This document shows positions 4,730 through 64,000 of a DNA stretch of 64,000 nucleotides, in pieces (within the stretch, counting starts at the first letter, position 1; the number at the start of each line of letters is the position of its first letter). The position numbers were made by a program, and so were the translations under genes. This DNA is from Bacillota bacterium. Lineage in GTDB: Bacteria > Bacillota > Sulfobacillia > DUMF01. Below the pieces are notes generated by a model. It did not search any database and was not told the origin of the DNA. It worked only from the letters and a program-made list of their open reading frames with translations. Location: positions 16,376-80,375 of the forward strand of contig DUMF01000017.1 in NCBI GenBank assembly GCA_012840015.1, written 5' to 3'.

Positions 4730-6382
4730 TTAGAACTCGAGCTGTAAATACTGGCTCCTGGCGAGACGACGTACTGCCGCCTGAAGGTAAGCCGATATGA
4801 CCCCGATGACTGGCAACACTGCAAGCGTGGCTACCCTCATTCCTAGCCCCATCCTGAGGAATAGCCAGAACAAGCCCGCTAGAGCAGCGACTAAAAGAGC
4901 GCCGAGCAAACCTGCGATTAGCCCGTTGTAGTTCCCCTTCATCGCTTGCTGCGGGTGAGTCCATTGTAAGCGTGGATGCAGGAGGTCTACGAGCAGCCCA
5001 ATTTGAGTCAAAGGAAGTGTTAGCGCCAAGCTTAGGGATGCGAGCCTCGCTATAGAAGCCACATCCAGGATACGGAAAAAGCACACGCTGATCAGCAGCA
5101 CCAAGAGCTGGGCAGTTCCATAGAGCATTCCGTAGAGCAGCTTTGCGTTGACCTGGATTTCAGGCGGTACCGGAATTAGCCTGGAAATCCAGAACGACTT
5201 GCCTTCCCTCGATACCGCAGTCGACGGTACCTGATTCGTCGCTACCAGCAAGCCAGAGAAACCTGTGATAGCGGGTACAAGCAAGGAGTTGCCACGTAAC
5301 TGATTGAGAAGGCCGGGCAGAGAAGCGGGCCCATGGGAGGTGGCAGCCCTGCTAACCAGCAGCAAGAGGGGTACCACCATTAGGTTCATTATGGCTGTCA
5401 TTAGGAAAGCCGGTGTACGGGTAAGATTCCAGTGTTCTCTGCGCAGCAGCGCTAGAGTAACCCCATCTGGAAGAACCTGAACGATTTGCTCGGCTCTTGC
5501 ACGCCTTCTGAGTTGGGTTTCTGCGGATAGATTGATGACGATATTACTCACGGCTGCGGCGACTACTGTAAGAAACGCCAGCGACGCTGCTAAAAAGCCC
5601 AACGAATACCATAGTGTGTAAGGACCATCGGACGAAAGTGCCCGAGCTGCCCACTGCAGTGGCGGAAATACTCTGCTCAGACGACTGGAGAACGTCTGAT
5701 ACCCATAAAGGGATGAAACGAGTCTTCCTGGATCACTCAAAGAGGTCCCGATATTCGCGTTGATCGACTGAAAGAAGACAATGGCTGCGAAGAAAATCAG
5801 GCTACTGAGTACCCGGAAGAAGTCCTTGCCCGGCAAACGTTCCGTGAGCTTCATCATTAGGGTCAAGCACAACAGAGACAACCCGAGCGGTACCAACGGA
5901 GAAAAGAGATACACCAGGACTGCGTTTAACCAGAAGATTGGGCCCATGTGAAAGGAAATGCCGGTAACCGCCGCAAAAGGCCAAAAGAATACCGCCAGGA
6001 TGAGACTAATACTGAGGTAAAGCGGTGCAAGCTCACCCATAGCTATCTGGAAGGGCGTCAAGGGCAGCACTTTTAACCTCTTTAAGTCTTTGGAGAAGTA
6101 CAATGAGGACAATACGTGGGGTATTCCGAAAAACACACAGATGATTTGGGATAGAGATACAATTAGCACTGCAGGTAGATCCCAAGCTCCTACCATCGAA
6201 GACGCTATAGTTAAGGCCCTGGCGGATACCGCTATGCTCGTAACGAAAGGTACCAGTGCAACTACGATTAGCAGAAGAAACAGGTGTTTATACTTCTGTT
6301 TTCGACCAATCCCCAGTAATTCCAACTGAGCGGCTAGATTAAACTGAGCCTTGATTAGAAACCAGATTACGCGTAGGGTCAC
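4730..6382 (-). CDS. ABC-2 type transporter permease (large polytopic membrane protein)
   Basis: 550 aa, highly hydrophobic with many predicted TM segments. Its start overlaps the stop of the upstream ABC ATPase (TGATG). Confidence 0.5.
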   Translation of the reverse strand: MTLRVIWFLIKAQFNLAAQLELLGIGRKQKYKHLFLLLIVVALVPFVTSIAVSARALTIASSMVGAWDLPAVLIVSLSQIICVFFGIPHVLSSLYFSKDLKRLKVLPLTPFQIAMGELAPLYLSISLILAVFFWPFAAVTGISFHMGPIFWLNAVLVYLFSPLVPLGLSLLCLTLMMKLTERLPGKDFFRVLSSLIFFAAIVFFQSINANIGTSLSDPGRLVSSLYGYQTFSSRLSRVFPPLQWAARALSSDGPYTLWYSLGFLAASLAFLTVVAAAVSNIVINLSAETQLRRRARAEQIVQVLPDGVTLALLRREHWNLTRTPAFLMTAIMNLMVVPLLLLVSRAATSHGPASLPGLLNQLRGNSLLVPAITGFSGLLVATNQVPSTAVSREGKSFWISRLIPVPPEIQVNAKLLYGMLYGTAQLLVLLISVCFFRILDVASIARLASLSLALTLPLTQIGLLVDLLHPRLQWTHPQQAMKGNYNGLIAGLLGALLVAALAGLFWLFLRMGLGMRVATLAVLPVIGVISAYLQAAVRRLARSQYLQLEF

Positions 6383-7164
6383 TAAACGTCACACCATCCT
6401 AACGAGCCAGGTATTCGATCTGTTCCTGGCGGGAGCTTGGCCCCTGTGATCTCCAAGAAAAGCTCTTCCAGGCTCTGGTTTTCTTTCGAAGCAAACAGCT
6501 CTTTCACCTGCTCGAGGGTGCCCGCAGCGATCAGTTTCCCTTTATGGATTATTCCTATCGTGTCACAGATTCTCTCGGCTATTTCCAGCACGTGTGTGGA
6601 GAAAAAGACAGTTCCCCCAGAGGAAGCGTGAGAGCGCATCAGGCCCTTCAGAATAAATGACGAACGCGGATCCAGGCCTACGATGGGTTCGTCCAAAATC
6701 CACACTGGCGGGTTATGAACGAGAGAACCGATTATGGCGAGCTTCTGCTTCATTCCGTGCGAGTAATTCTGTACGATATCGTCGATTACAGGGGAAAGCT
6801 CAAAAGCATCCAATAAAGCGTTTACTCGTTCGAGGTTTTTAGAATCTACTCCGTATACGCTTGCAAGGAACCTAATGTACTCCCTGCCGGTCACCTTGTC
6901 CCATATATCTACATCGTCAGGCACATATCCTAAGACTCTTTTAGCGGAAATCGGATTTTTTACGACGTCGATTCCTTCGACGCGAATGCTCCCCCGGTCA
7001 GGTCTCAGAAGCCCGATGATCATTTTGATCGTCGTGGTTTTTCCTGCCCCGTTAGGTCCTAGAAACCCGAAAACCTCTCCATTTTTGACTTCCAGATCGA
7101 GAGAATCTACCGCTGGTTTGTCCGACCTAGCATAACTCTTGCTGACGGAACGAAGCTCAATCAT
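6382..7164 (-). CDS. ABC transporter ATP-binding protein
   Basis: Walker A GPNGAGKTT, Walker B VWILDEP and an ABC signature-like region are present. Confidence 0.8.
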   Translation of the reverse strand: MIELRSVSKSYARSDKPAVDSLDLEVKNGEVFGFLGPNGAGKTTTIKMIIGLLRPDRGSIRVEGIDVVKNPISAKRVLGYVPDDVDIWDKVTGREYIRFLASVYGVDSKNLERVNALLDAFELSPVIDDIVQNYSHGMKQKLAIIGSLVHNPPVWILDEPIVGLDPRSSFILKGLMRSHASSGGTVFFSTHVLEIAERICDTIGIIHKGKLIAAGTLEQVKELFASKENQSLEELFLEITGAKLPPGTDRIPGSLGWCDV

Positions 7165-7197
7165 CCGTTGGCTCCCTTCGCGGCGAGTTGGCTGAGT

Positions 7198-7674
7198 TCA
7201 AGCGAGTATCTTCTCTAACATTTCGTTAGCAGCACTTTCTTCCATGTTCTTGGCCAAGACTAGTTCGCTGATGAGTATTTGCCTTGCACTATCAAGCATC
7301 TTGCGCTCGCCGGTCGAGAGGCCCTTTTCCTTATCCCTCAGCCAGAGATTCCGGACCACCTCTGCGACTTCGTAGATGTTCCCGGATTTTATCTTTTCAA
7401 GGTTAGCCCTATATCGCCGGTTCCAATTGGTGGACATTTTACCGCTGTGAGCTTTGAGTACCTTTACGACGTTGTCCACTTCTTTAGCATCGATCACTGG
7501 CCGCAGGCCAACGCGTTCGGAGCTCGTTACAGGTATCATCACTTTCATTTCGCCGATGGGAAGCTTCATTATATAGTAGCTTTGTTTCTCTCCGAGTACC
7601 TCCTTTTCTTCAATGGCCTGTATCACACCGGCGCCATGCATAGGATATACCACTTTATCGCCGACTTTGAACAT
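7198..7674 (-). CDS. CarD/CdnL-family transcriptional regulator (RNAP-interacting)
   Basis: The N-terminal MFKVGDKVVYPMHGAGVIQAIEEKEVLGE… matches the CarD_CdnL_TRCF RNAP-interacting domain. Length 158 aa. Confidence 0.7.
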   Translation of the reverse strand: MFKVGDKVVYPMHGAGVIQAIEEKEVLGEKQSYYIMKLPIGEMKVMIPVTSSERVGLRPVIDAKEVDNVVKVLKAHSGKMSTNWNRRYRANLEKIKSGNIYEVAEVVRNLWLRDKEKGLSTGERKMLDSARQILISELVLAKNMEESAANEMLEKILA

Positions 7675-7874
7675 CTCGTTGCCTCCCAGAACCAGTTAGC
7701 TTCATGATAGCATAAAATGCCAGCATAGTCAATAAAACTTGAATTCTATCATCATTACCTTCGGCTTGTCTACTCCCATTATTTTACGGGTTACTGGGAA
7801 AAGCAGTGCCTTCGTCTGTAGCGGTTGGGTTACCATGTATTGTAATATGATCCTCAGGGATCGAAACGGCAGGG

Positions 7875-8327
7875 GTGAGGGATTTGAGAAACGTGGCTTT
7901 ACATAGAGTACGTTATGCGGAAACTGACCAAATGGGTGTGGTGTACTATGCCAACCATTTCATCTGGTTTGAAATCGGCCGGGCCGAGTTTTTGCGGGCA
8001 GCCGGCATACCGTATTTGGAGCTAGAGAAGCGAGGCATCTTCACTCCGGTGGCAGAGGCATACTGTAAGTATAAGACGCCGGCCAGGTATGACGAGCTCA
8101 TAGAGGTGGACACTAGTATCGTCGCGCTAAAGGGTGCGAGAATACGCTTCGAGTACGAAATCAGACATCACGATACGGGGGTCGTAATTGCCGAAGGTTA
8201 TACCGTGATGGCTTTCGTTGACCGTCAAGGGCGACCTATCGCGATAGAAGTTGCATGTCCCGACGTTTTCGAAAAGTTGCGTTCGGTCGTGACTGAGTCG
8301 AGATGGGGGGCTAAACACCATGGATAA
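7875..8327 (+). CDS. Acyl-CoA thioesterase (hotdog fold, YbgC/4HBT family)
   Basis: The …[18 protein letters not shown]… hotdog thioesterase core, about 150 aa. Confidence 0.65.
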
Positions 8328-9261
8328 CCGAGAAGTATACGATGTAGCTATCGTTGGCGCCGGACCGGCGGGATTGACTGCGGCTATTTACTGCGGGAGG
8401 GCAGGGCTGAAGACCTTAGTAATGGAAAGGATGGTCCCAGGGGGGCAGGCTGCAACTACGGATAAAATCGAAAACTACCCGGGGTTTCCAGAGGGAATAT
8501 CTGGCCCTGAGCTCATGCGGAAAATGGAAGCGCAGGCCAGGAAATTCGGGGTGCCTGTAGAAATGACCGAGGTAACCGGCATCGAAAAAAATGGGGATAT
8601 GTTCCGCCTGACGTTACCAGACGGTGAGGTCAGGAGCAGGTCAGTCATCATCGCAACTGGTAGCAGGGAAAGACCGCTGGGGGTACCTGGCGAAAAGGAG
8701 TACCGTGGCCGCGGAGTATCATACTGTGCGACGTGCGATGGAGCTTTTTACAGGGGTAAAGAGGTAGTTGTCGTCGGAGGAGGAGATTCAGCTATCGTAG
8801 AGGCCATCTTTTTAACCAGATTTGCCTCGAAAGTTAGTGTGATACATAGGCGGGACCAATTGCGGGCGGCCGCAGCTCTGCGGGAACGAGCTATGGCCAA
8901 CCCGAAGATACAATTTGTTTGGAATACGGTTGTCACGGGCATATATGGCACTGACAAGGTGGAGTATGTAAGCCTCAAGAACAGGGTGACGGGCGAGGAA
9001 AGCCGGCTTGACACGTCAGGCGTATTCGTTTATGCCGGCCTCGTACCCAATTCGGAGTTCGTAATAGGCAAGCTTGAGCTGACGCAGGATGGCTACATTC
9101 TCACCGATGAGTTTCTCCAAACCACTCTACCAGGTGTTTTCGCAGCCGGAGACGTGCGTAAAAAACCCGCCAGGCAGGTAGCCACGGCAGTAGGGGATGG
9201 GGCTTTGGCCGCGATGAGCGCGGAAAACTTCCTTGCGCTTCAGGTACGGGGGCAGAAATAA
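8320..9261 (+). CDS. trxB: Thioredoxin-disulfide reductase
   Basis: FAD motif GAGPAG, redox-active CATCDG, NADPH motif GGGDSA. Length 313 aa. Confidence 0.85.
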
Positions 9262-29058: not shown

Positions 29059-29133
29059 GCTGGCGTAGCTCAACGGCAGAGCAGCTGATTTGTAATCAGC
29101 AGGTTGTCGGTTCGAGCCCGACCGCCAGCTCCA
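29059..29133 (+). tRNA. tRNA-Thr (anticodon UGU)
   Basis: GCTGGCGTAGCTCAACGGCAGAGCAGCTGATTTGTAATCAGCAGGTTGTCGGTTCGAGCCCGACCGCCAGCTCCA. The 7-bp acceptor stem and 5-bp anticodon stem flank the loop TTTGTAA. The T-arm is GGTTCGAGCCC. Confidence 0.85.
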
Positions 29134-29205: not shown

Positions 29206-30378
29206 CTAATGTACTCGCCCCGAACCGTTTTCGTCGGGGAAGAGAATATGGTCTAGTGAGGTCGCAGCCTGCTCTTGTAGGCCCGGCAGGACATGGGAAT
29301 AAGTGTCGAGAGTTAAGTTTATCTGGGAGTGCCCGAGGCGTTCGGACACAACCTTTGGGTTTACGCCCGCCTGCAGCAGCAAGCTCGCGTGGGTATGGCG
29401 GAGGTCGTAAAAGCGGATATCCGGGAGACCTGCAGCTTTGAGCACAGCCTTGAATTTGCGGGTAAGATTCCTGGCGCTTATCGGCGTGCCATTTGCGGTG
29501 CAGAACACGAATCCATTGTCTTCCCGATAAAAGGGGCGTTCCCGGTTCTGCTGCGCCTTGTGCTTGAGCAAGACCTCGGCTATTCCCTGTGAGATTGCAA
29601 CCTGCCGGCGGCTTTTCGATGTCTTCGTACCCTGTACCAGCAGTTGGCCTTTCCGCTTCTGTAAAGTTTGACGCACCGATATGGTTAAGTTGTCGAAATT
29701 GACATCCTCCCACCTTAATCCCAACAATTCGGACTGCCTCATACCGGTGGCGAGAGCCAAGAGGAAGAGCGCATATAGCCTATCTCCTTCCAGGGCACGC
29801 AAGAGCAGCACTGCTTGTTCGGAAGTCAAGCTTCTCATTTCTTTCTGCTCCATACTTGGAGGATCGGCAGCTTCGGCCGCGTTGTACGGGACTATCCTCC
29901 ACTTGACGGCCGTCCTGAGGGCCTTATGCAGAATGCGATGGTGGTACAGTACCGATCTCGCGGAAAGCCCTCCCGGCTTGCCGTCCTTTCTCCCGGACTG
30001 AAGGGCCCGGAGGTAATACTCTTGGAGGTGGGTCGGGGAGAGCCTGGCTATTGGGATTCTCCCCAAGGCAGGGATAAGATGTTGTTCGATGATTTGCGTG
30101 TAACTCTCCAGAGTCCGAGGGCCCACCTTGGGCTTAGCGTACTTTTCCAGCCATATTCTCAGATACTCTGCCATGGTAAGCTTGCCGGGGTCGGCCGGCA
30201 GCCCAGCTTCAAGCTCCGTGATCTTCTTGGCCAGGAATCGTTCAGCCTCGCGCTTGTTACCGTGGACGGTATACCATTTATACTTCTGCTTCCCCGTCAA
30301 CTCATCGCGGCCGAGGTAGATCACGACGGAATATGACTTTTCGCTACGTTTACGGATGTGGCCTTTCAACGGTGTCAC
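29206..30378 (-). CDS. int: Tyrosine-type site-specific integrase (phage integrase family)
   Basis: An N-terminal SAM-like/arm-binding region and a C-terminal catalytic domain with conserved R…HxxR…Y residues (…LRHTHASLLLQAGVNPKVVSERLGHSQINLTLDTYSHV…). Confidence 0.85.
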   Translation of the reverse strand: MTPLKGHIRKRSEKSYSVVIYLGRDELTGKQKYKWYTVHGNKREAERFLAKKITELEAGLPADPGKLTMAEYLRIWLEKYAKPKVGPRTLESYTQIIEQHLIPALGRIPIARLSPTHLQEYYLRALQSGRKDGKPGGLSARSVLYHHRILHKALRTAVKWRIVPYNAAEAADPPSMEQKEMRSLTSEQAVLLLRALEGDRLYALFLLALATGMRQSELLGLRWEDVNFDNLTISVRQTLQKRKGQLLVQGTKTSKSRRQVAISQGIAEVLLKHKAQQNRERPFYREDNGFVFCTANGTPISARNLTRKFKAVLKAAGLPDIRFYDLRHTHASLLLQAGVNPKVVSERLGHSQINLTLDTYSHVLPGLQEQAATSLDHILFPDENGSGRVH

Positions 30379-45547: not shown

Positions 45548-47001
45548 CCGACCAGAAACGAGTGTTGACCAAAGCGATAACGATACAGGCAGACCAGCGG
45601 ACATCGGCCGGGGGGTCAAAGCAACTCCCGGCGGATCCGTTTTCGAGGCTTTATTCGGAGTACGGTCTGGTGAGGCCTCCGTATCGCCTCGAGCAGTTGC
45701 TCGAACTCAAGGAGTCGAACCCGATCCACTGTGCCTGCATAGAGCAGAAGAGTTCGGATATTGCTGGCCTGGGTTGGCACTGGGTGCCGAGACAGGGTAT
45801 CGATAAGCCCAACGAAAAGCAGCGCGACGCTCTCGAGGAGTTCCTGGCTGGCTGCAACCCCGAGATGACGTTCCGGGAGATTTTGCAAGCAGTCTGGGAC
45901 GATGTAGAAACGCTCGGGTGGGGCATTGTCGAAGTGGTCCGCAATGCTAAAGGCCTGCCGGCTGAACTGTACCACGTGCCGGGCCACACGGTCCGGGCCC
46001 ACCGTGACGGCGTCCGGCTCTGCCAGATACGGGAGAACAAGATGCGGTGGTTCAAGCGCTTCGGTGCGGAGGGTGAGTACGATCTTGAAACCGGTGAACC
46101 GAGAAACGGGCTGCCCGAGGAAAGGCAGGCCGGCGAGCTCATAGTCATCCGCAAGCCCGGTTCCCGGTCCAGCTACTACGGGATACCGACGTACATCAGT
46201 GCGCTGGGCGCCATCGTGGGCAGCCTGGCAGCCAGGGATTTCAACATTACCTGGTTCCGCGAGAAGACGGTCCCGGATATGGCGCTGATTATCGAAGGGG
46301 CCGATGTATCCGAGAAACTGGCGAACGAGCTCCGGACCTTTTTCAACATTGAGGCACGAGGGCAGCATCATAAACTGCTAATTTTGCCCATCCCTTCGGA
46401 TGCCGGTGCAGAAGTCAGAGCCAGGTTTGAGAAGCTGACTTCCGAGCTCAAAGATGCTTCGTTCCGGCTCTACCGGCACGACAACGCGGTTGAGATCCTG
46501 GTGGCTCACCGCGTTCCGCCTTACAGAATCGGTTGGGCAATCGTCGGTTCGCTGGGCGGTTCTACGGCGAAAGAGATGACTGAGATCTACAAGCGCTCAG
46601 TCATCCAGCCTGGTCAGGAGATTCTCGAGCACAGGCTTAACAATCAACTATTCAAGGCCTTCGAGCCCGGCCTTGGTGAGCTGCAGTGGCGCTGGAAGCT
46701 GGACGAGATAGACCTCTCCGACCAGATGCAGGACCTCGAGTACTCCATCAAGGGCGTGCAGTACGGCATATTTACGCCCAACGAGGCGCGTCAGCATCTA
46801 GGCAAGCAGCCTTATCCGGGCGGAGATGTGTACTACATGCCGCAAGCGCTAATACCGGCCGGCCAGGCTGAAGTGTCCAAGGCCGACGAAGATCCGCGGG
46901 ATAAAGAGTGGGACGACTGGGTTCGGGTACATCATCGCTATGAAAAAGACCTGCGCGACAAGGTGGTCGATTTTTTCGCTCCCAGGCGGAGCGCGTGCTG
47001 A
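45544..47001 (+). CDS. Portal protein
   Basis: 485 aa in the position after terL. Typical portal length with ATGA-type coupling. Confidence 0.75.
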   Translation: MTDQKRVLTKAITIQADQRTSAGGSKQLPADPFSRLYSEYGLVRPPYRLEQLLELKESNPIHCACIEQKSSDIAGLGWHWVPRQGIDKPNEKQRDALEEFLAGCNPEMTFREILQAVWDDVETLGWGIVEVVRNAKGLPAELYHVPGHTVRAHRDGVRLCQIRENKMRWFKRFGAEGEYDLETGEPRNGLPEERQAGELIVIRKPGSRSSYYGIPTYISALGAIVGSLAARDFNITWFREKTVPDMALIIEGADVSEKLANELRTFFNIEARGQHHKLLILPIPSDAGAEVRARFEKLTSELKDASFRLYRHDNAVEILVAHRVPPYRIGWAIVGSLGGSTAKEMTEIYKRSVIQPGQEILEHRLNNQLFKAFEPGLGELQWRWKLDEIDLSDQMQDLEYSIKGVQYGIFTPNEARQHLGKQPYPGGDVYYMPQALIPAGQAEVSKADEDPRDKEWDDWVRVHHRYEKDLRDKVVDFFAPRRSAC

Positions 47002-48017
47002 GAGCGCTTCCGCCGGCAGAGAAGATAGAAAAGGCCTGGTTCGACGGGCTGATTGACCCCGTCGAGGAGCAGAAGAAATTCCTCGAAGCCATACTGCCGG
47101 AACTGCAGAAGATCTTTGCCAAGTTCGCCGAAAAGGCCGCGAAGCAGCATCGAGTCAGTTTCGATCCGTCGGAACCCGCGGCTCTGGAGTGGATCAACGA
47201 GCATGCTTTCGAATTAGTCGAACAAGTCACGGACACCACGGTGGAGCAGCTTCGTGCGACGCTGGAGGAAGGATGGAAGGCGGGTGAGGGCGTAGAGGGC
47301 CTGGCAGAGAGAATCAGGCAGGTCTTCGACCAGGCTACGCGTTACAGGTCCTTTGTGATAGCCCGGACCGAGACTACCGCAGCTGCCAACATGGCACAGA
47401 TAGCCGTGATGGAGCGGGCAGGGGTGCAGTACAAGCAGTGGCTTACGGGCAGGGACGAACGCGTTTGTCCTCTCTGCGGTAGCCTGGACGGCAAAGTAGT
47501 GCGGATAGACGAGGAGTTTGCCCCGGGGATATTCAGCCCACCGGCACATCCGAACTGCAGGTGCACGGTTCTGAGTGCGAGCACAGTTCATAAGCACTTG
47601 CCAGGTCGACATGACCAAAAAAGCCACGGTAGACGAGGTCACGGGCGGCCCACAGTGATTGCGTCTATCGAAAGCGGGGATCTGCGACAGCTTGGATTGT
47701 CTGCAACAAGCACTAAAGTAGTTTTGCGCTCACAAATAAGAGCAAAGATTCTAAGAGATCACCCAGATGATGCTGGATACTTGGATAGAATCAGCGAGGT
47801 TATCGAGGCTTGGGAATATCAAGGGAAGTCTCCAAAACATCCAAGGAGACTCGAGCGATACAAGCAGTTAGACGGTATCTGGTTTACGGCAGTGGTCCAA
47901 TTAGCCGGAGAAACATCTGATTACGTTGACAACTTCGTAGTGACATTCCACAGGCTCGACGAACGAAAGGTACGTAGCCGATACAACAAAGGGAGGATAG
48001 TACCAAGAAGCCATTGA
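46995..48017 (+). CDS. Minor head protein (MuF / SPP1 gp7-like) with ~140-aa C-terminal extension
   Basis: MuF-like core ending …CPLCGSLDGKVV…HPNCRCTV, then an additional basic C-terminal region. Confidence 0.65.
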   Translation: MLRALPPAEKIEKAWFDGLIDPVEEQKKFLEAILPELQKIFAKFAEKAAKQHRVSFDPSEPAALEWINEHAFELVEQVTDTTVEQLRATLEEGWKAGEGVEGLAERIRQVFDQATRYRSFVIARTETTAAANMAQIAVMERAGVQYKQWLTGRDERVCPLCGSLDGKVVRIDEEFAPGIFSPPAHPNCRCTVLSASTVHKHLPGRHDQKSHGRRGHGRPTVIASIESGDLRQLGLSATSTKVVLRSQIRAKILRDHPDDAGYLDRISEVIEAWEYQGKSPKHPRRLERYKQLDGIWFTAVVQLAGETSDYVDNFVVTFHRLDERKVRSRYNKGRIVPRSH

Positions 48018-48339
48018 AGTGATCATGTCGACGTGGTACGATTAAATTGCCCTTGAGGTAGGTAAATGGGGACCTACGCCCTCGCGGAGATGCCGGTCTT
48101 TCCCGTCCGGCCAAGGGTGTTTTTTGTTGCTGTTCGCGAGTACAATAATCTTAGTCGCCAGAGGTGGAAAATCTCCAGCCATACCCCTGATTCACATCAG
48201 GGCAAAAGAGATGCCGGGACGGGAGGTCCGGCCTGGCGACAGCAAGCACCTTGAGGTGGACAACGGCTTCCACACGCCCTCTGGGCCAAAAGGGATGCGG
48301 GACACGCCGGACCCGCCAAGGTGTAGCCTAATATAGACG

Positions 48340-48372: not shown

Positions 48373-48396
48373 TTGCCCCGAAAGCGTGGTGATAGC

Positions 48397-49011
48397 ATGC
48401 CCAGAGGCGGAGGCTGGGACGAGACTTCTACGAGCTACAGGTATCGGGTTCGTGACCCCTATGAGTTCCAAGAAGGGAGCTTCAGGATCATATCCTTGGG
48501 CGACAGCGGTGTCAAGGCCGTGGTTGGAAAGCTCAAGGGAGAGGACTCAATGACCATCCAGTCGCTCATCTTCCCGAAGGACAAGTTTACTGAAGAAGAG
48601 GCTCGCCAGTGGTTGAAGGATCGCCCCGACACCGTAGGAAAGTTTTGCAAAGCGATCAGCTTCCTCAAAACGGATGAAGAAAAGCGCTACACCCTCGGGA
48701 TCGTCTACGAACCTGACACGGTGGATTCCCAGGGCGACTACGCGAGGGCCGAAGACATTGAGAAAGCTGCTTGGGATTTCATGAGGAAAACCCTGCGGCT
48801 CGGGTACATGCACAAGGAATGGAGCGATGACATCGGCGACATTGTAGAGTCCTATATCGCCCCAGTTGATATGAGAATCGGGGACGACATTATCAAGAAG
48901 GGCACCTGGCTTATCGGCGTGGTGTGGAGCCCGGAGTACTGGGAGAAAGTGAAGAAAGGCGAGATAACGGGGTTCTCGATGGGAGGGAAGGCGAGAAGAA
49001 TACCTGAGTAG
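48397..49011 (+). CDS. Phage protein in XkdF-like position (putative prohead-associated protein/protease)
   Basis: About 204 aa between the minor head protein and the scaffold. Family call is by position only. Confidence 0.35.
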   Translation: MPRGGGWDETSTSYRYRVRDPYEFQEGSFRIISLGDSGVKAVVGKLKGEDSMTIQSLIFPKDKFTEEEARQWLKDRPDTVGKFCKAISFLKTDEEKRYTLGIVYEPDTVDSQGDYARAEDIEKAAWDFMRKTLRLGYMHKEWSDDIGDIVESYIAPVDMRIGDDIIKKGTWLIGVVWSPEYWEKVKKGEITGFSMGGKARRIPE

Positions 49012-58700: not shown

Positions 58701-59345
58701 GGCAAGACCTTCGGTGAGCGTCTGATCGAAGGCATAGGGCCATACATCGATGAGCTGAACAAGATGGTCTCTTCGGCCCTCACAGCGGCTTCAGGAGCTA
58801 GGACCACTCCAGCTTCTGGGAGCGGTGGAGGCTATGCTGAACAGATAAGCAGAATCTCAGCCTCCGACTTAGCCAAACTCCGGGAAAACAGTCGGCAGTG
58901 GTGGGAGGTCCAAAACAATCCCAACCTCTCGCCCGAGCAGAAGAAGGCAATACAGGACGCCCTGCACGCCGAGAACGCCGCGATCCAGGGCAAATACGGC
59001 ATCCCGGCGGAGGCAAGTGAGACCGAGATTAACTGGTCAAGAATGCACTCGGGCGGAATCGTCAAGTCGAACCCCCTGGCGGAGTTTCTGAGAAACGCAC
59101 TCCTGTTGAAGCCTCAGGAAGTGCCGGTCATATTGCAGGAGGGCGAGATCGTCCTGCCGCGCTCGTTCAGGCTGCCAAATCTTGCGAGCCTGGGTTCGGT
59201 CTCGGTCGCGCCTGCATTTGCGGGTGCGCCTACAATCAACGTGACGATATCAGACTGCACCTTCCAGGACGGCACCGATGCCGGTCGTCAGATAGGCACG
59301 GCCATTGTCTCCGAGCTGCGAAGACGAGGAGTGATGCGGTATTGA
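55734..59345 (+). CDS. Tail tape measure protein
   Basis: About 1203 aa, Ala/Glu/Lys-rich coiled coil (…EKEQRTRAVRDAIDAEKERVDAIIAEIDRER…). Canonical position after G/GT. Confidence 0.85.
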   Translation: MALMQLREIDQQARKAGSTLGGLVKQAASFAAGIGLWQGFTATARALGNTFIGLNTQFQQAGMALETMLGSSEKARSLLSDLEAFAARTPFEFPELMDATQRMMALGFSAEEVIPTLQAVGDAAAAMHKGKEGIDRIILALGQMRAKGKVTGEEMRQLTEAGIPAWDLLARAIGKSVPEVQKLAEKGLIPADKAVQVLVQGMEDKFAGMMDKFADMFPGVVSTIRDNVKMLFKDLTSGPFADMTEWLKGIRDWTSRIREAYVGATKAASGIAGVEAESRRKAGLAAVYDLLVPKGSKLREELDPVLTALNDFWKSVTSAASKFVPVIRDAWESIRPVALTIARAIAEAGSKAAQLAGVIADNWSKIKPVILGVATSFAVLKTSMALEKAAKGIPELISSIVEKGRYQAKLFDMAIRDSSGVLGKFKAAIQALTGVNPVFLAIGAAVTAVAVLAFELYRNWKDVPPFFRALWETIKATFALGWSGIAVVLREMQLGVAKVLNATLGNVLRFAAKVAEVFGKIPGAREFVGGIQAALEGGAEWFAGFEESSAKALDEAKGDILEASRNLGQRWEELKATGSVLGKAIGSDLAAIFTAAKAKAKEAFGAIIPGLQSVGDKATEAGRKAETGLGDGFGLGAEEARQAVDKAVSAIEKLISEAGNTLGEGTDKAAVRLQNALASAMAAVKALGGAAGQELADDLSGAAALVEAAVKGRSEEAAVALLEKLGRASAKVASLIKDDSGEAAQSLKNALSEAAQEVQDRFKQLTEEAKKQQIESIDRLNDALVSALRKRYEKEKEQRTRAVRDAIDAEKERVDAIIAEIDRERWAREEATNDALRLQIRSIWAEIDAIEELTRKEEEEAKQAEQRARILELQAKIAEETDPVERQKLQMELAKELAEQERQQILAQREERKKQLQKQLEDIRYQQEQSLKAFQATKQKELDYLENEYYPRLLQDAALQAEAEKMILAGKHAEILELLQQYGEGWKDLGKTFGERLIEGIGPYIDELNKMVSSALTAASGARTTPASGSGGGYAEQISRISASDLAKLRENSRQWWEVQNNPNLSPEQKKAIQDALHAENAAIQGKYGIPAEASETEINWSRMHSGGIVKSNPLAEFLRNALLLKPQEVPVILQEGEIVLPRSFRLPNLASLGSVSVAPAFAGAPTINVTISDCTFQDGTDAGRQIGTAIVSELRRRGVMRY

Positions 59346-59477
59346 ATGACAGGCTCGACGTAAAATGCTCGGTGAAAATCCAACTGAACAGCGGCAACAC
59401 AGAGCCCCGGAAAATAGAAGTCCCGGGGCTCTTACGTTTGAGGCAGTTAGTTGAGGACCTGAAAAGGAGGAACAAGG

Positions 59478-59945
59478 ATGGCAATATTCGACCTGCTAAG
59501 AAGGCTGAGAAGTAAGTCGGGAGTCCGTGGGCAGTGTCTGGTTGAACTCTTCGACGAGCACGGTAGGCTTAAGGAGCGCAGGCTCGTTAAGAACCTTATT
59601 GTGAACAACGGCAAGTACGCGATTACAGAACAACTGCTTGACTCGCCTAGTATCGCCAAACCGAGTCACATGGGAATAGGCACGGGGACAACTGCTCCTG
59701 CGGCTACAGATACGGCGCTTGGTACTGAGGTCGGGACCCGGGTGTCTGTGACCAAGTCCCGGTCGAACAACGTACTTACGTTGAGCGCAACGTTTGGTGC
59801 TGGTAACGGCACAGGGGCCATAACAGAGGCGGGGATATTCAATGCGGCGACTGCAGGGACGATGTACAGCAGGATCACGTTTGCAGCTATAAATAAAGGT
59901 TCAAATGATTCGCTCACTTTGACATGGACTTGGACTATTGGATGA
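59478..59945 (+). CDS. Hypothetical Gly/Thr/Ala-rich tail-tip-region protein (155 aa)
   Basis: β-rich low-complexity sequence (…TLTWTWTIG). Located immediately after the tape measure gene. Confidence 0.4.
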   Translation: MAIFDLLRRLRSKSGVRGQCLVELFDEHGRLKERRLVKNLIVNNGKYAITEQLLDSPSIAKPSHMGIGTGTTAPAATDTALGTEVGTRVSVTKSRSNNVLTLSATFGAGNGTGAITEAGIFNAATAGTMYSRITFAAINKGSNDSLTLTWTWTIG

Positions 59946-59962
59946 TTCTGGAAGTGGTCTAG

Positions 59963-62900
59963 TTGGCTAGGTTTGGCACAGGGCAATTTGGCAGCGCAAA
60001 ATTCGGAGTAGAGGAGCTTTCTGAGACCCAACTTAGCCTGCTCGAAACGCTGCAGAAGTCTTTTGCTCGTAGCCTGGCTGATTCGATCAGCCTTTCTGAT
60101 GTGCTGCTGACTGCTCTCAAGAAGGTTGTTAGTGAGTTGCTGGCTCTGGCGGAGTCAAGCGTTCGCGACATTGGGCCATCGGTTGCGGATTCTTTTGGGC
60201 TGTCCGACACCGCTTGGCAGGGGTTCTCAACGAATTTGGTCGATGCGTTGACGCTTTCTGAATCTGTGGCCCGTCTGGCTGCAGCGGTCCGAGCCGATTC
60301 AGTCACGTTGAGCGACCTTCTTTCGGCCTCAGCCATGAAGGTTTTGAGCGACGCCCTGAGCCTGGCCGATGCTTGTGCGACAGGAGCAACACTGAGCAAG
60401 GAAGACGTTCTGACTCTGGCAGACGGATTCAGCGTAGCAGTCGCCAAGGCGTTAGCCGACACCCTCGCGCTTGCGGAGGCGATCTCCGCGGTGACTGGGG
60501 CTTCTAGAGCTGAGTCGCTGGTCCTAGCGGATGCGTTGGCGTTAAACGTAGCCAAGGTTCTTGGCGATGATCCGGTGACCCTGGCTGACGTGTGGTTTAG
60601 GCTATTCACGACACGGGTAGAGAGTAACTTGGCTCAAGGCAAGCCGTATACGAAGAGCAAAGCGCCTTCGCCGTCGTATCCCGATACCAACCACTCTGAA
60701 TTCACCGACGGGAATGAAGGAGACAATTGGACCAGCGCTTTTGGTTATACTGCAGCGATTTTGGGCATTCCGGACGGCGCTGTAGGTTCGGTCGAAATTG
60801 TCGTAGACCTGGGATCGCCTGCAACGGTTAGCCGCGTTCGAGTGAAGACTGGCGGAGGCTCGCTGAGTTACAGAGCCGACCAACTGGACGTAGAGGTTAG
60901 CCAGGACGGTGTGGCTTTCATCCCCGTTGGAAGTACGACGCAGTTAATCGATACCTGGTATCACGAAGTAGGCTTCGAGCCAGTTATATGCCAGTTTGTT
61001 AAATTCCGTGTCGCAAAAGACTTTGCTCCAGCGGGCCAGCCTGGCGACTGGCTGTTCATAGGAGAGGGCTGGGTTTACGGTGAATGGGCAATTGATACAA
61101 TTGACAACGTAGCAGTGGCAACAACCAAGTCAGCCTCTGACCTCGTGGAGCTGACAGATACTCTTATCAAATCAGCTTCGACGTCGCTTTCCGAAATGCT
61201 CGCTCTCGTCGAAGCCATGGCAACCACAATCCAAAAAGTTGTTGATGAAAGCGCGAATGGGACCGATTCCCTGCAGGCAAGCACGAGCAAGGTTCTGGCT
61301 GACGTTGCTTCTCTGGCCGACGTAATTCGCACTGTGATAGACGCCTATCCCGGACGATCCGCATTGTTCGGTCTCGCAAGGTTCGGCTACGAGTATTTCG
61401 GCAACCAGCAACCTGGAGAAGCAGTAAGTCTCCGGGATGCGATAGCCAGCGAGATCGGATTTGGTGTGCTAGCAGAGGATCTGGAGGTACTGGCTGATGC
61501 GATAAGGTCCGCTGTGGAGAGGCTGGCTGCAGAGAATCCCGCGCTGCTGGATGCCATTGCGTCGGGCCTGGTGGCGCAGAGGCCGGATGAAACCGCTCTG
61601 GCGAGCGATGCCGTCGCGCTTCAGGTTGCCCGAGCAGTTGAATCGCTGCTGGCTGTCTCAGATGCCCTGTTAAGCATGGCCAGTGAGAAGGGTATTACCG
61701 ACACAGTAGCACCGGTGGTGGATTCTCTGACGAGTAAAGCGACGAAGGTTGTTGAACTGGCGCTCGCGTTGGGCGATCAGGCCGCAGCGCAAGTTGCTAA
61801 GTCTCTAAGTGGCGAGGCAGTAGCTCTGGCTGACGCGATAGCGCAAACTGCGGGTGTACAACTTGAGGACATTGCGCTCGACCTGGGCTCCGTGTTGCAG
61901 TCTGCTGATATGTCTGCAGCAATCGGCGGAGCTAGGTTTGGACGGTCCGCGTTCGGCTCAGTTTCGTTCGGCGACAAAGGGACCCGTGCCGCTACGACTG
62001 ACGACTTGGCAAAGGCAATAAGCACCGTTCTGGGCGATGTCATAAGTCATTTGGATGCTCTTGCACTCCAGGCTATCAAAACTGCTGCTTTGTCAATGAC
62101 GTTGACAGAGGCAGTAGCGCTTGTCGCGCAGAAGGTAGCTGCGGATTCGGCAAGCGTTGTGGACCTGAACACGTTTGCAGTGGCAAAGAGCCTTGGGCTC
62201 TCAGTGGCCGTGGCCGACGATGTTGCCAAAGCCGTTGCGATCGCGCTACAGGGTCTGAGTGTAACTACAGCGGACCAGGTTCAGGCTGCCCTTGCAATGC
62301 TCCGTCAAGCCCAGGACGAAATGGCGATAGTGGACGGTGTAGTCCGAGCGATTAATCTGCTCAGGGACGAACTTGTAGCCGTGGCTGACGAAGCCCGGAA
62401 AGACATCGATGCCAAGCGGGCTGAAACCCTGGCAATAGCGTCGGCACTGGGGAAAGATGTGGCTCACTTCCCACCTGGCGATGTGACAGGTTTACTCGAC
62501 GAGGTTGAATTGCTGGGTGCTCTCCTGGCTGGCGACCTCATGGCTCCCCTCATGGATGCCGTTACTGGCGAGGTGTACGAAGTGTTGAGTCAAGTCTTCA
62601 TAAACGGAATATCTGTGCTGACCAGGGGACTGACCATCAAAGAGAGCGTCGCTTCCCGTGTCGGCGAGTGTTCGTTCGTGATTCCCGATCCGACGCCGCA
62701 GGTTCTTTCCCTCTGCCAGCAGGGTGCAGATGTGCACGTCTACCTCAGCGATTCCGGCGAGAACATCGTCTGGGGCGGCAGGATTGTGTCGGCCAGCGTC
62801 GTATCGGTCAGTTCGCTGGTCCGCGAGATTCGAGTTACAGCCCAGGACTATGCTACACGGGCACAGTCGGTCCTGGTTTCCGGGGCCTGGGTGCAGACAA

Positions 62901-64000
62901 AGTACACGGACACAGTGAAGGCCCTTTGGCAGCAGTACGCACCGGAAGACAACCTGGTCCTTGAAGTAACCGACAACCCTAAAGTCGCCGAAAAGTGGGT
63001 CGTGAAGTGGGAAAGTCTTGCCGAAGCCACCGACAAGATTGCCCAGGTCCTCGGCTGGACCTGGCGCGTGGACTGGGACGGTGGCAAGAAGATATTCCGG
63101 TTCTTCGATCCCGGTGCTGAGGTACATCCGCGGGTCCTCTCTGTAGCGAACCTCAACATCGAGTCCGGCACCGCAGAGTTTGGCCAGGACGAGGAGATAG
63201 TAAACAGCGTCTACGTCCTGGGCGGTCAGACACTATACACACCCGACCCATATCGCAAAGTGGCCGATGGGCAGGAGACGTACTTCATCCTGCCGGCCAG
63301 GCCCTTCGAGCCCATCGCCATCAAGGTGGACGGCGTAGAGAAAACTTGGACCTACGAGGTTCCGTACTGGCCTGAAGGTAAAGACTGCATGGTCAACCCG
63401 GAAGGCAGATACGTGCGGTTCCGTACGGCTCCGGCGAGTGGGGCTGTAGTCGAGGTTACCTATCAGGCCATGCGTCCGGTCCGCGTTCACCTCGAAGAGC
63501 CTGGCAGCATTGCGCTGTACGGTAGGCACGACCGGGTTGTGAACGACTCCAAGATCGCGGACCCATTGCAGGCACGCGAGACGGCACGGAAGATCCTGCG
63601 CGAAAAGGCCTGGCCGAAACAGCACGGCACGATGAATGTCTACGAGCCTGGGCTTCGGGCGGGTAAGATCGTGCACGTGTACCTGCCCGACAGAGGAATC
63701 GATGGGTTGTATCAAATTGCAGAGATGACGTGGGCCGTTGACCGAGCCGTGATAAAGCGCAGCATATCACTCAACAGGGTAGCAGATGCCGGGGCAAGCA
63801 TCGCGCAGGTCATCAAGGCACTGGCGGAGCGTGTGGCTGCACTGGAAGCGGGAGCGGACAGCGAGAATGCAACTGTCGATCGCTTCATTGATCAGTCACA
63901 GCGCGTGAAGATTGCCGTGAACGCTGACTGGGCAGGTAGCATTGTTGCAGCTCCTGGAGCTGATCAATACTCAGCGTTTGACCTTGCGACCCGTGTCCTG
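59963..64000 (+). CDS. Post-tape-measure ORF open to the window end (>1,340 aa, 3' partial). Ala-rich helical regions and a discoidin-like segment.
   Basis: Hand translation shows a stop in this frame at 59960-62 and an open frame from 59963 (TTG) to the end of the window. The ORF track lists no + strand ORFs here. The translation includes …DGNEGDNWTSAFGY…VKFRVAKDF… and a region from …FINGISVLTRGLTIKESV…. Confidence 0.55.
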   Translation, partial: MARFGTGQFGSAKFGVEELSETQLSLLETLQKSFARSLADSISLSDVLLTALKKVVSELLALAESSVRDIGPSVADSFGLSDTAWQGFSTNLVDALTLSESVARLAAAVRADSVTLSDLLSASAMKVLSDALSLADACATGATLSKEDVLTLADGFSVAVAKALADTLALAEAISAVTGASRAESLVLADALALNVAKVLGDDPVTLADVWFRLFTTRVESNLAQGKPYTKSKAPSPSYPDTNHSEFTDGNEGDNWTSAFGYTAAILGIPDGAVGSVEIVVDLGSPATVSRVRVKTGGGSLSYRADQLDVEVSQDGVAFIPVGSTTQLIDTWYHEVGFEPVICQFVKFRVAKDFAPAGQPGDWLFIGEGWVYGEWAIDTIDNVAVATTKSASDLVELTDTLIKSASTSLSEMLALVEAMATTIQKVVDESANGTDSLQASTSKVLADVASLADVIRTVIDAYPGRSALFGLARFGYEYFGNQQPGEAVSLRDAIASEIGFGVLAEDLEVLADAIRSAVERLAAENPALLDAIASGLVAQRPDETALASDAVALQVARAVESLLAVSDALLSMASEKGITDTVAPVVDSLTSKATKVVELALALGDQAAAQVAKSLSGEAVALADAIAQTAGVQLEDIALDLGSVLQSADMSAAIGGARFGRSAFGSVSFGDKGTRAATTDDLAKAISTVLGDVISHLDALALQAIKTAALSMTLTEAVALVAQKVAADSASVVDLNTFAVAKSLGLSVAVADDVAKAVAIALQGLSVTTADQVQAALAMLRQAQDEMAIVDGVVRAINLLRDELVAVADEARKDIDAKRAETLAIASALGKDVAHFPPGDVTGLLDEVELLGALLAGDLMAPLMDAVTGEVYEVLSQVFINGISVLTRGLTIKESVASRVGECSFVIPDPTPQVLSLCQQGADVHVYLSDSGENIVWGGRIVSASVVSVSSLVREIRVTAQDYATRAQSVLVSGAWVQTKYTDTVKALWQQYAPEDNLVLEVTDNPKVAEKWVVKWESLAEATDKIAQVLGWTWRVDWDGGKKIFRFFDPGAEVHPRVLSVANLNIESGTAEFGQDEEIVNSVYVLGGQTLYTPDPYRKVADGQETYFILPARPFEPIAIKVDGVEKTWTYEVPYWPEGKDCMVNPEGRYVRFRTAPASGAVVEVTYQAMRPVRVHLEEPGSIALYGRHDRVVNDSKIADPLQARETARKILREKAWPKQHGTMNVYEPGLRAGKIVHVYLPDRGIDGLYQIAEMTWAVDRAVIKRSISLNRVADAGASIAQVIKALAERVAALEAGADSENATVDRFIDQSQRVKIAVNADWAGSIVAAPGADQYSAFDLATRVL

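Follow-up and report, generated by a model that had tools for sequence, protein, structure and literature searches.

A giant gene of a Bacillota prophage that probably encodes a tail-tip hub with a built-in glycan-binding arm

Here we have analysed a 64,000-nucleotide (nt) stretch of a Bacillota bacterium genome (assembly GCA_012840015.1, contig DUMF01000017.1, positions 16,376 to 80,375; the whole stretch is called the window below), whose right-hand end holds codons 1-1346 of a giant 1,408-codon gene, the rest lying past the window end. The gene stands one small gene 3' of the tape measure protein (TMP) gene of a siphovirus-type prophage: TMP gene, 155-codon gene, giant gene, in an order that recurs in relatives. 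The product is, in our judgement, probably the Tal-type tail-tip hub of a temperate siphovirus-type prophage, with a glycan-binding arm built into its N-terminal side. A sequence-only reading of the same DNA had proposed a tail-tip or host-recognition protein, a proposal now strengthened by the position in the tail module, by a hub fold over the C-terminal 420 amino acids (aa) and by a discoidin domain that scores above its Pfam threshold.

The giant gene and its integrity

Translation keeps a single forward frame open from the TTG at 59963 to the window end, 1,346 codons among which a renewed search for a missed stop found none, as the sequence-only reading had it. Just two other forward open reading frames (ORFs) of at least 60 aa lie in this interval, both short and out of frame (62668-62964 and 62724-62918). 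A database protein, P0001, is 100% identical, uses the same start codon (MARFG...) and adds 62 aa past the window end to reach 1,408 aa. It is encoded on a 113-kb contig of a 'Firmicutes bacterium' metagenome-assembled genome (MAG). The start itself is bounded by an in-frame TAG immediately 5' of it (59960-59962), lies 18 nt past the preceding gene's stop codon, has a GGAAGTGG stretch upstream of it, and is kept in position in the related loci L001, L002 and L009, where it reads ATG, GTG and TTG, respectively.

It had been left open earlier whether a frameshift splits this frame into several genes, and separate fibre genes could in principle have been joined to a hub gene by a frameshift from sequencing or assembly, or by a chimeric contig. 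Nothing speaks for such an artefact except that the frame is unusually long and that a motif resembling the N-terminus recurs within it. Alignments show P0001 to be collinear with P0002 (from a Bacillota MAG of Kamchatka; 87% identical), P0003 (72% identical) and P0010 from Logan assemblies, and P0004 and P0005 from JGI assemblies, and the continuous repeat-plus-hub layout is found in about 20 further 50%-identity clusters from NCBI, JGI, ENA and Logan. Because homologues in independent assemblies are collinear, the alignments indicate that this is one genuine 1,408-aa prophage gene without a frameshift; all of these assemblies would otherwise need the identical error, and we reject the artefact as exceedingly improbable.

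Table 1. Features of the giant gene and of the prophage around it, in window positions
Feature	Position	Strand	Basis or remark
Giant tail-tip gene, codons 1-1346 of 1408, cut by window end	59963..64000	+	translation, P0001 match, start kept in relatives
N-terminal triple-pentad motif, aa 4-15	59972..60007	+	FGTGQFGSAKFG; ARFG from nt 59966
Repeat array 1a, aa 20-222	60020..60628	+	18/36-aa-period units xDxLxLxDxLxxxVxxxL
Discoidin (F5/8 type C) carbohydrate-binding cassette, aa 226-378	60638..61096	+	Pfam match aa 238-352
Repeat array 1b, aa 385-465	61115..61357	+	
Internal triple-pentad motif 2, aa 469-480	61367..61402	+	FGLARFGYEYFG
Repeat array 2, aa 485-655	61415..61927	+	93% identical to P0002
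Internal triple-pentad motif 3, aa 659-670	61937..61972	+	FGRSAFGSVSFG
Repeat array 3, aa 680-870	62000..62572	+	runs straight into hub
gp27 / Mu gp44 / XkdQ-like tail hub domain, aa 874-1290	62582..63832	+	fold, profile
Beta-rich insertion in hub, aa ~1090-1171	63230..63475	+	absent from short relative P0010
Amphipathic helix 3' of hub, aa 1276-1297; then low-confidence tail	63788..63853	+	AlphaFold2 model
Conserved 155-aa companion gene between TMP and hub genes	59478..59945	+	phrog_5417 E=1.7e-30; weak Pfam Gp80
TMP gene, 1294 aa	55461..59345	+	PF20155 E=1.1e-35; several PHROG tape-measure families
gp17-like tail completion gene	53518	+	
HK97-gp10-like gene	52850	+	
MuF-like head gene	46995-48017	+	
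Portal gene	45544	+	
Terminase gene	44234	+	
Tyrosine integrase	29206-30378	-	beside tRNA-Thr
tRNA-Thr(tgt)	29059-29133	+	adjoins integrase

Hub, cassette, repeats and motif

An AlphaFold2 (AF2) model of aa 860-1408, built on a 93-sequence alignment, has a mean predicted local distance difference test (pLDDT) score of 83.6, exceeding 90 over aa ~870-1269. Foldseek returned 62 PDB matches for it at E<=1e-3, the top ones listed being hubs, VgrG spikes and Tal proteins: the best is the baseplate hub of Haloferax tailed virus 1 (HFTV1; 9h4p_BD, E=3.9e-18), followed by the hub of an Anabaena contractile injection system, VgrG1, Mu gp44, MuSo2, monocin, 80alpha Tal and NF5 Tal. Fold matches in BFVD are named 'tail protein', '43 kDa tail protein' and 'endopeptidase tail', and the family profile, run against PDB sequences, likewise finds the HFTV1 hub (E=2.7e-14). 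As modelled, the four-domain gp27/Mu gp44/XkdQ hub fold is shown for aa 874-1290. The sequence-only reading had likened this C-terminal part to distal-tail components of siphoviruses; a tail-type component it is, whereas the distal-tail (Dit) identity is rejected, since both the AF2/Foldseek comparison and the profile give a gp27-like hub rather than a Dit or tail-tube-like fold. The insertion of about 80 aa within the hub, present in most family members, is the sole stretch with weak profile matches to immunoglobulin light chains and to the Dit of a gene transfer agent (GTA). Neither Pfam nor NCBIfam detects a hydrolase or lysin domain in P0001, NCBIfam giving no match at all, and phmmer found no match to P0001 in the PDB; distant standalone homologues of about 480 aa do match the Pfam families YQBQ, GpP-like and Prophage_tail (P0029, for example, matches YQBQ at 35.6 bits).

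The family could be gathered only by an exhaustive HMMER search, which with the C-terminal 487 aa as query returned 839 50%-identity clusters at E<=1e-3; a word-indexed homologue search had found one protein with the C-terminal piece and two marginal ones with the N-terminal piece, and a scan of genome contigs gave only the Kamchatka MAG already found. About 25 of the best 150 hub clusters are proteins 767-2,234 aa long in which a repeat-rich N-terminal part precedes the matched C-terminal domain. Among 50,697 phage records, hub matches occur at E<=0.01 in just three, all at about 24% identity: two of Thermoanaerobacterium phage THSA-485A and one of a Methanosarcinales virus, hence two phages. 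A megablast search with the 55-64 kb interval against the same records gave no match. The hub subfamily is thus nearly absent from cultured phages and common in metagenomes.

Upstream of the hub lies an N-terminal extension of about 870 aa, into which a discoidin domain is set. The F5/8-type-C-like insert that the sequence-only reading had suspected holds up: PF00754 (F5_F8_type_C) matches aa 238-352 at E=1.1e-7, with 32.5 bits against a curated cut-off of 28.2, and PF22633 is likewise above its cut-off (28.4 bits vs 27.8), so that by profile the identity of aa 238-352 as a discoidin domain is shown. The region has pLDDT below 50 in the N-terminal AF2 model. P0002 precisely lacks the domain, and P0003 carries at the same site an unrelated domain of about 230 aa that begins NLITNGSFEKGF; in P0004 the discoidin is 54% identical to that of P0001 and the hub only 33%. 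Other family members carry CBM_4_9 or GBS_Bsp-like domains instead. Measured against P0002, identity is 61% over aa 1-225 and 55% over aa 379-468, vs 93% over aa 469-656, 82% over aa 657-873, 93% in the hub and 96% in the tail; at the DNA level, two blocks aligning at about 84% identity leave a weakly conserved zone between them at ~59.9-61.2 kb, and blastn against L001 gave no match across 60613-61235. These comparisons show that what is variable and exchangeable is the discoidin domain, together with the protein's N-terminal third. Because the domain is absent, replaced or shared across divergent hubs, and because identity drops in the N-terminal part, the cassette pattern is, at sequence level, the signature of a host-range module.

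The roughly 720 aa of the extension outside the discoidin domain are acidic, Ala/Leu-rich repeats. Composition over aa 1-225 and 385-880 (A 17-20%, L 13-17%, S 8-13%, D about 8%) and the peaks of the BLOSUM autocorrelation at 18- and 36-aa lags bear out the Ala/Leu/Ser/Asp-rich repeats of the sequence-only reading; their helical nature, also claimed there, is only likely. Across the family, 1,218 units anchored on [LIVMAF]x[LIVMF]x[DE] are most commonly spaced 18 residues apart, with the profile given for array 1a in Table 1. Gly plus Pro make up just 3.7-7.6% of the arrays, the hydrophobicity spectrum has its maximum at 3.6-3.76 residues and lacks a period-2 signal, and mean Chou-Fasman helix propensity is 1.07-1.13 vs about 1.0 for strand. 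The repeats therefore probably form a helical rod, which is the reading we favour. Beta-solenoids (a left-handed beta-helix of hexapeptides, an RTX beta-roll or short leucine-rich repeats) were considered because of a period-6 component and an LxLxD core, and were set aside as less probable: D or E would occupy inward-facing positions, and there are no Gly-rich turns. The extension carries a net charge of -58 over 873 aa and no transmembrane-like segment. A Pfam search at E<=10 with the repeat arrays and the repeat proteins P0006-P0008 gave only sub-threshold matches to assorted, mostly helical, families; phmmer with P0008 found no match in the PDB, and a literature search for an 18-residue repeat in phage found no paper.

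It is also worth noting that the same 18-aa repeat builds hub-less proteins of 1,197-1,383 aa (P0006 and P0008) in head-gene neighbourhoods; such proteins are encoded at 5643-9236 of locus L007, among portal/MuF and capsid genes, and at 1740-5891 of L008, upstream of a Mu Gp36-like gene. Because hub-less repeat proteins occur among head genes, the repeat is, by gene neighbourhood, a putative general spacer module of phages and not specific to tails.

Finally, the recurring ARFGxxxFG that had been noticed three times in the window is part of a larger triple pentad, ([FWY][GD]xxx)x3. The ARFG copies begin at residues 2, 472 and 657 (nt 59966, 61376 and 61931), where the earlier reading had them, and a fourth copy (ARFGFARFG, residues 1390-1401) lies at the C-terminus, past the window end. 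In the 25 long family members, 148 overlapping two-pentad matches are found vs 4.6 expected from shuffling; the motif is N-terminal in 16 of the 25 and C-terminal in 22. When the window and related loci are translated in six frames, the triple motif is essentially confined to the giant gene. Because minimal members (568-617 aa) too both begin and end with the motif, the core design is, as read across the family, motif-linker-hub-helix-motif, with a linker that expands from about 85 to about 1,700 aa and grows by added repeats, further motifs and globular domains. Whether the second position of the pentads is G or D also co-varies within a protein: the C-terminal copy and the N-terminal and internal copies are correlated in flavour (rho 0.66, p=4e-4, n=24, with no correction for phylogeny). 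In the AF2 model the C-terminal motif scores a pLDDT below 50, and a 20-column motif profile found no match in the PDB. For its role we entertain two hypotheses, trimeric nodes or pairing of the N- and C-terminus.

Comparison with known hubs and the fate of the extension

The closest solved hub is HFTV1 gp44 (PDB 9h4p; Sci Adv 2025, PMC12494034), at an identity of only 13-14%. In gp44 the hub is N-terminal (residues ~40-395 of 954) and globular domains follow it, whereas in P0001 the fibre-like part is fused before the hub; furthermore, the HFTV1 fibres are a separate protein, gp42, whereas the fibre-like part of P0001 is covalently built in. At each hub subunit of HFTV1 the fibre attachment point is the N-terminus, and the fibres radiate at about 45 degrees (PMC12494034). 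Classical Tals have an N-terminal hub and a C-terminal extension, and evolved Tals carry carbohydrate-binding modules (CBMs) inside the gp27-like domain (PMC7291167); Tals with C-terminal extensions are well described in siphophages that infect Gram-positive bacteria, among them 80alpha gp59, p2 ORF16, A118 gp18 and those of S. thermophilus phages (PMC7291167, PMC7533335). Compared with a classical Tal, P0001 has the inverse order, its hub occupying aa 874-1290 of 1408 behind an N-terminal extension, and it has no detected lysin domain; like an evolved Tal it carries a CBM, but in the N-terminal repeat array and not within the gp27-like domain. It thus shares fold, locus and CBM logic with Tals and differs in domain order and in its undescribed repeat-and-motif scaffold. 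The hubs Mu gp44, MuSo2 43 kDa tail protein and XkdQ-YqbQ (1wru, 3cdd, 9g8s; PF24032) have about 310-380 aa without an extension and serve sheathed contractile tails or tailocins with a spike, whereas the P0001 locus contains no sheath or baseplate-wedge genes. A related discoidin is found in Moorella phage MTATph1, which infects a thermophilic Bacillota host: the F5/8 type C domain of CDS0046, a 691-aa protein of the structural gene block, is 47% identical over aa 221-372, but its carrier is unrelated to P0001, and the domain is joined to no hub there.

By analogy with solved hubs, three copies of the giant protein would form a trimer that seals the tail tube and holds the TMP's C-terminus. 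The N-terminal extension would leave the hub where HFTV1 gp44 anchors its three separate fibres, and because those fibres attach at the N-terminus of the hub subunit, we read the extension as a built-in fibre or arm. This arm would present the discoidin domain to cell-surface glycans in a first, reversible adsorption step, so that a cassette swap could retarget the phage; binding may then cause the hub to open or be lost, releasing TMP and DNA. An external location agrees with the acidic extension, with its lack of a transmembrane segment and with its lack of similarity to the TMP, and the tube lumen leaves no room for a folded domain of about 150 aa.

Several points weigh against a Tal-type hub with a glycan-binding arm. 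On its own, P0001 falls below the threshold of every Pfam hub family (YQBQ 16.7 bits, cut-off 27), so that hub membership rests on fold and profile evidence. The AF2 model of the N-terminal 880 aa, built on a 6-sequence alignment, has a pLDDT of 33.7 and is unusable. Discoidin folds bind non-glycan ligands too. No classical Dit gene is found by Pfam or PHROG between the TMP and hub genes (window 59345-59963), and given this the tip architecture may differ from the textbook TMP-Dit-Tal triad. Lastly, the prophage could be defective.

Other geometries deserve weight alongside the three radiating arms. It is possible, though we would not bet on it, that the three extensions zip into one homotrimeric segmented fibre, in which the triple pentads form short beta-type nodes that link helical rods, a design like that of segmented trimeric phage fibres. 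Such a modular rod predicts that the number of motif-delimited segments varies freely, as it does (0-4 internal motifs), and it could account for a motif of three aromatics 5 apart, each followed by G or D and found only in the giant gene, as well as for the 3.6-residue hydrophobic period of the arrays; the N-termini are, however, peripheral in the closest solved hub, with one fibre each, a chain reaching the hub from a fibre on the three-fold axis is without precedent among the solved hubs retrieved, and the motif profile matches no solved structure. Perhaps, and this we find doubtful, the N- and C-terminal motifs instead pair at the distal face of the hub, so that the extension loops out once or more with both ends fixed and the carbohydrate-binding domain close to an apex. 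The presence of the motif at both termini, even in the minimal members, the correlated G/D flavours and the place of the P0004 discoidin, roughly midway between two motifs, all agree with a loop, but shared ancestry or gene conversion could explain a flavour correlation uncorrected for phylogeny, the P0001 discoidin lies away from the centre (about 220 aa precede it and 95 follow), and the confidence of the C-terminal motif is low.

The same motifs, placed exactly at module borders and each internal one resembling the N-terminus of the protein, might suggest protease sites at which a polyprotein is cut into fibre proteins and hub during maturation; we hold this to be improbable, since motifs also lie so close to the two ends (residue 4 and about 10 residues short of the C-terminus) that cutting there would achieve nothing, and neither the gene nor its neighbours yielded a tail-associated protease domain. 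Less credible still is an extension that is internal and ejected like the TMP rather than an external adhesin. Its helix propensity is close to the 1.09 of the TMP, but BLASTP against the window's own TMP is not significant (E=0.33), there are no hydrophobic segments, and the folded inserts of the family (discoidin, CBM_4_9, GBS_Bsp-like and, judged by eye, the jelly-roll-like N-terminal domains of P0004 and P0005) would not fit the lumen. The giant ORF also has no tape-measure match in Pfam or PHROG, and on these grounds a tape-measure-like internal protein was rejected.

Returning to the hub with a built-in arm, the usual account of how siphoviruses of Gram-positive and thermophilic anaerobic bacteria recognise their hosts invokes a TMP-Dit-Tal triad and separate receptor-binding proteins, and here the adhesion apparatus would sit on the opposite, N-terminal, side of the hub. 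The repeat and motif that build it are described by no Pfam, PHROG-function or PDB entry. We tentatively suggest an undescribed assembly element, in which pentads at both termini and at every module border would clamp the scaffold of 18-residue repeats to the hub, through trimeric nodes or N/C pairing, and turn the hub into a plug-and-play display of receptor-binding domains whose extension ranges from about 85 to about 1,700 aa; it might replace separate fibre or receptor-binding genes and possibly the classical Dit-centred baseplate. Annotators gain a rule for recognising giant 'hypothetical proteins' of this kind, and the cassette at 60.6-61.1 kb is pointed to as a candidate host-range determinant, while the hub protein itself offers a potential natural scaffold for exchanging binding domains. 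Further study should go to the pentad motif, at the termini and inside the protein alike, and to the fold of the repeats.

Prophage surroundings

All prophage genes listed in Table 1 lie on the forward strand, the integrase excepted. The tRNA-Thr and integrase are the probable left end of the prophage and its attachment (att) site, with host genes upstream. Relatives show the same synteny, with two to five small genes separating the giant gene from the lysis cassette downstream; in L001 there is no further large tail gene between the TMP and lysis genes. The 155-aa gene between TMP and hub is 68-96% identical in relatives at the aa level, the hub being much less conserved (33% to P0004), and weak similarity links its product to Pfam Gp80 (podophage GP4 fibre I), a PHROG 'tail fiber' family and residues 403-565 of the HFTV1 hub (E=0.11). 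It is likely to be a tail-tip partner of the hub.

Small genes around the hub vary between loci. A distant paralogue of the 155-aa product, 119-141 aa long, is encoded 3' of the hub gene in L001, L003 and L009, and right after the annotated 150-aa gene of L001 lies an apparent second, uncalled partial copy of it (8016-8393; 76.7% DNA identity to window 59523-59900). An extra 187-192-aa gene follows the TMP gene at 8928-9491 of L003 and 5768-6346 of L009, and is absent from the window, L001 and L002. Between the 150-aa and hub genes, L001 (8799-9997) and L002 (8747-9997) have extra genes of 343-365 aa and 47-48 aa, neither of which occurs in the window, and L002 encodes downstream a 388-aa protein with a sub-threshold discoidin match. 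Given these extra genes and the discoidin-like protein, adhesion modules seem, from sequence comparison, to switch between the hub arm and genes of their own. The hub homologue of the Methanosarcinales virus vir515 directly follows the TMP gene.

Three tandem 'skipping-rope' RNA motifs (Rfam RF02924) lie on the forward strand at 48048-48119, 48154-48240 and 48246-48324, scoring 43.7-58.4 bits vs a gathering score of 36.7; they lie in the gap between the MuF-like head gene and the next ORF (48373-49011).

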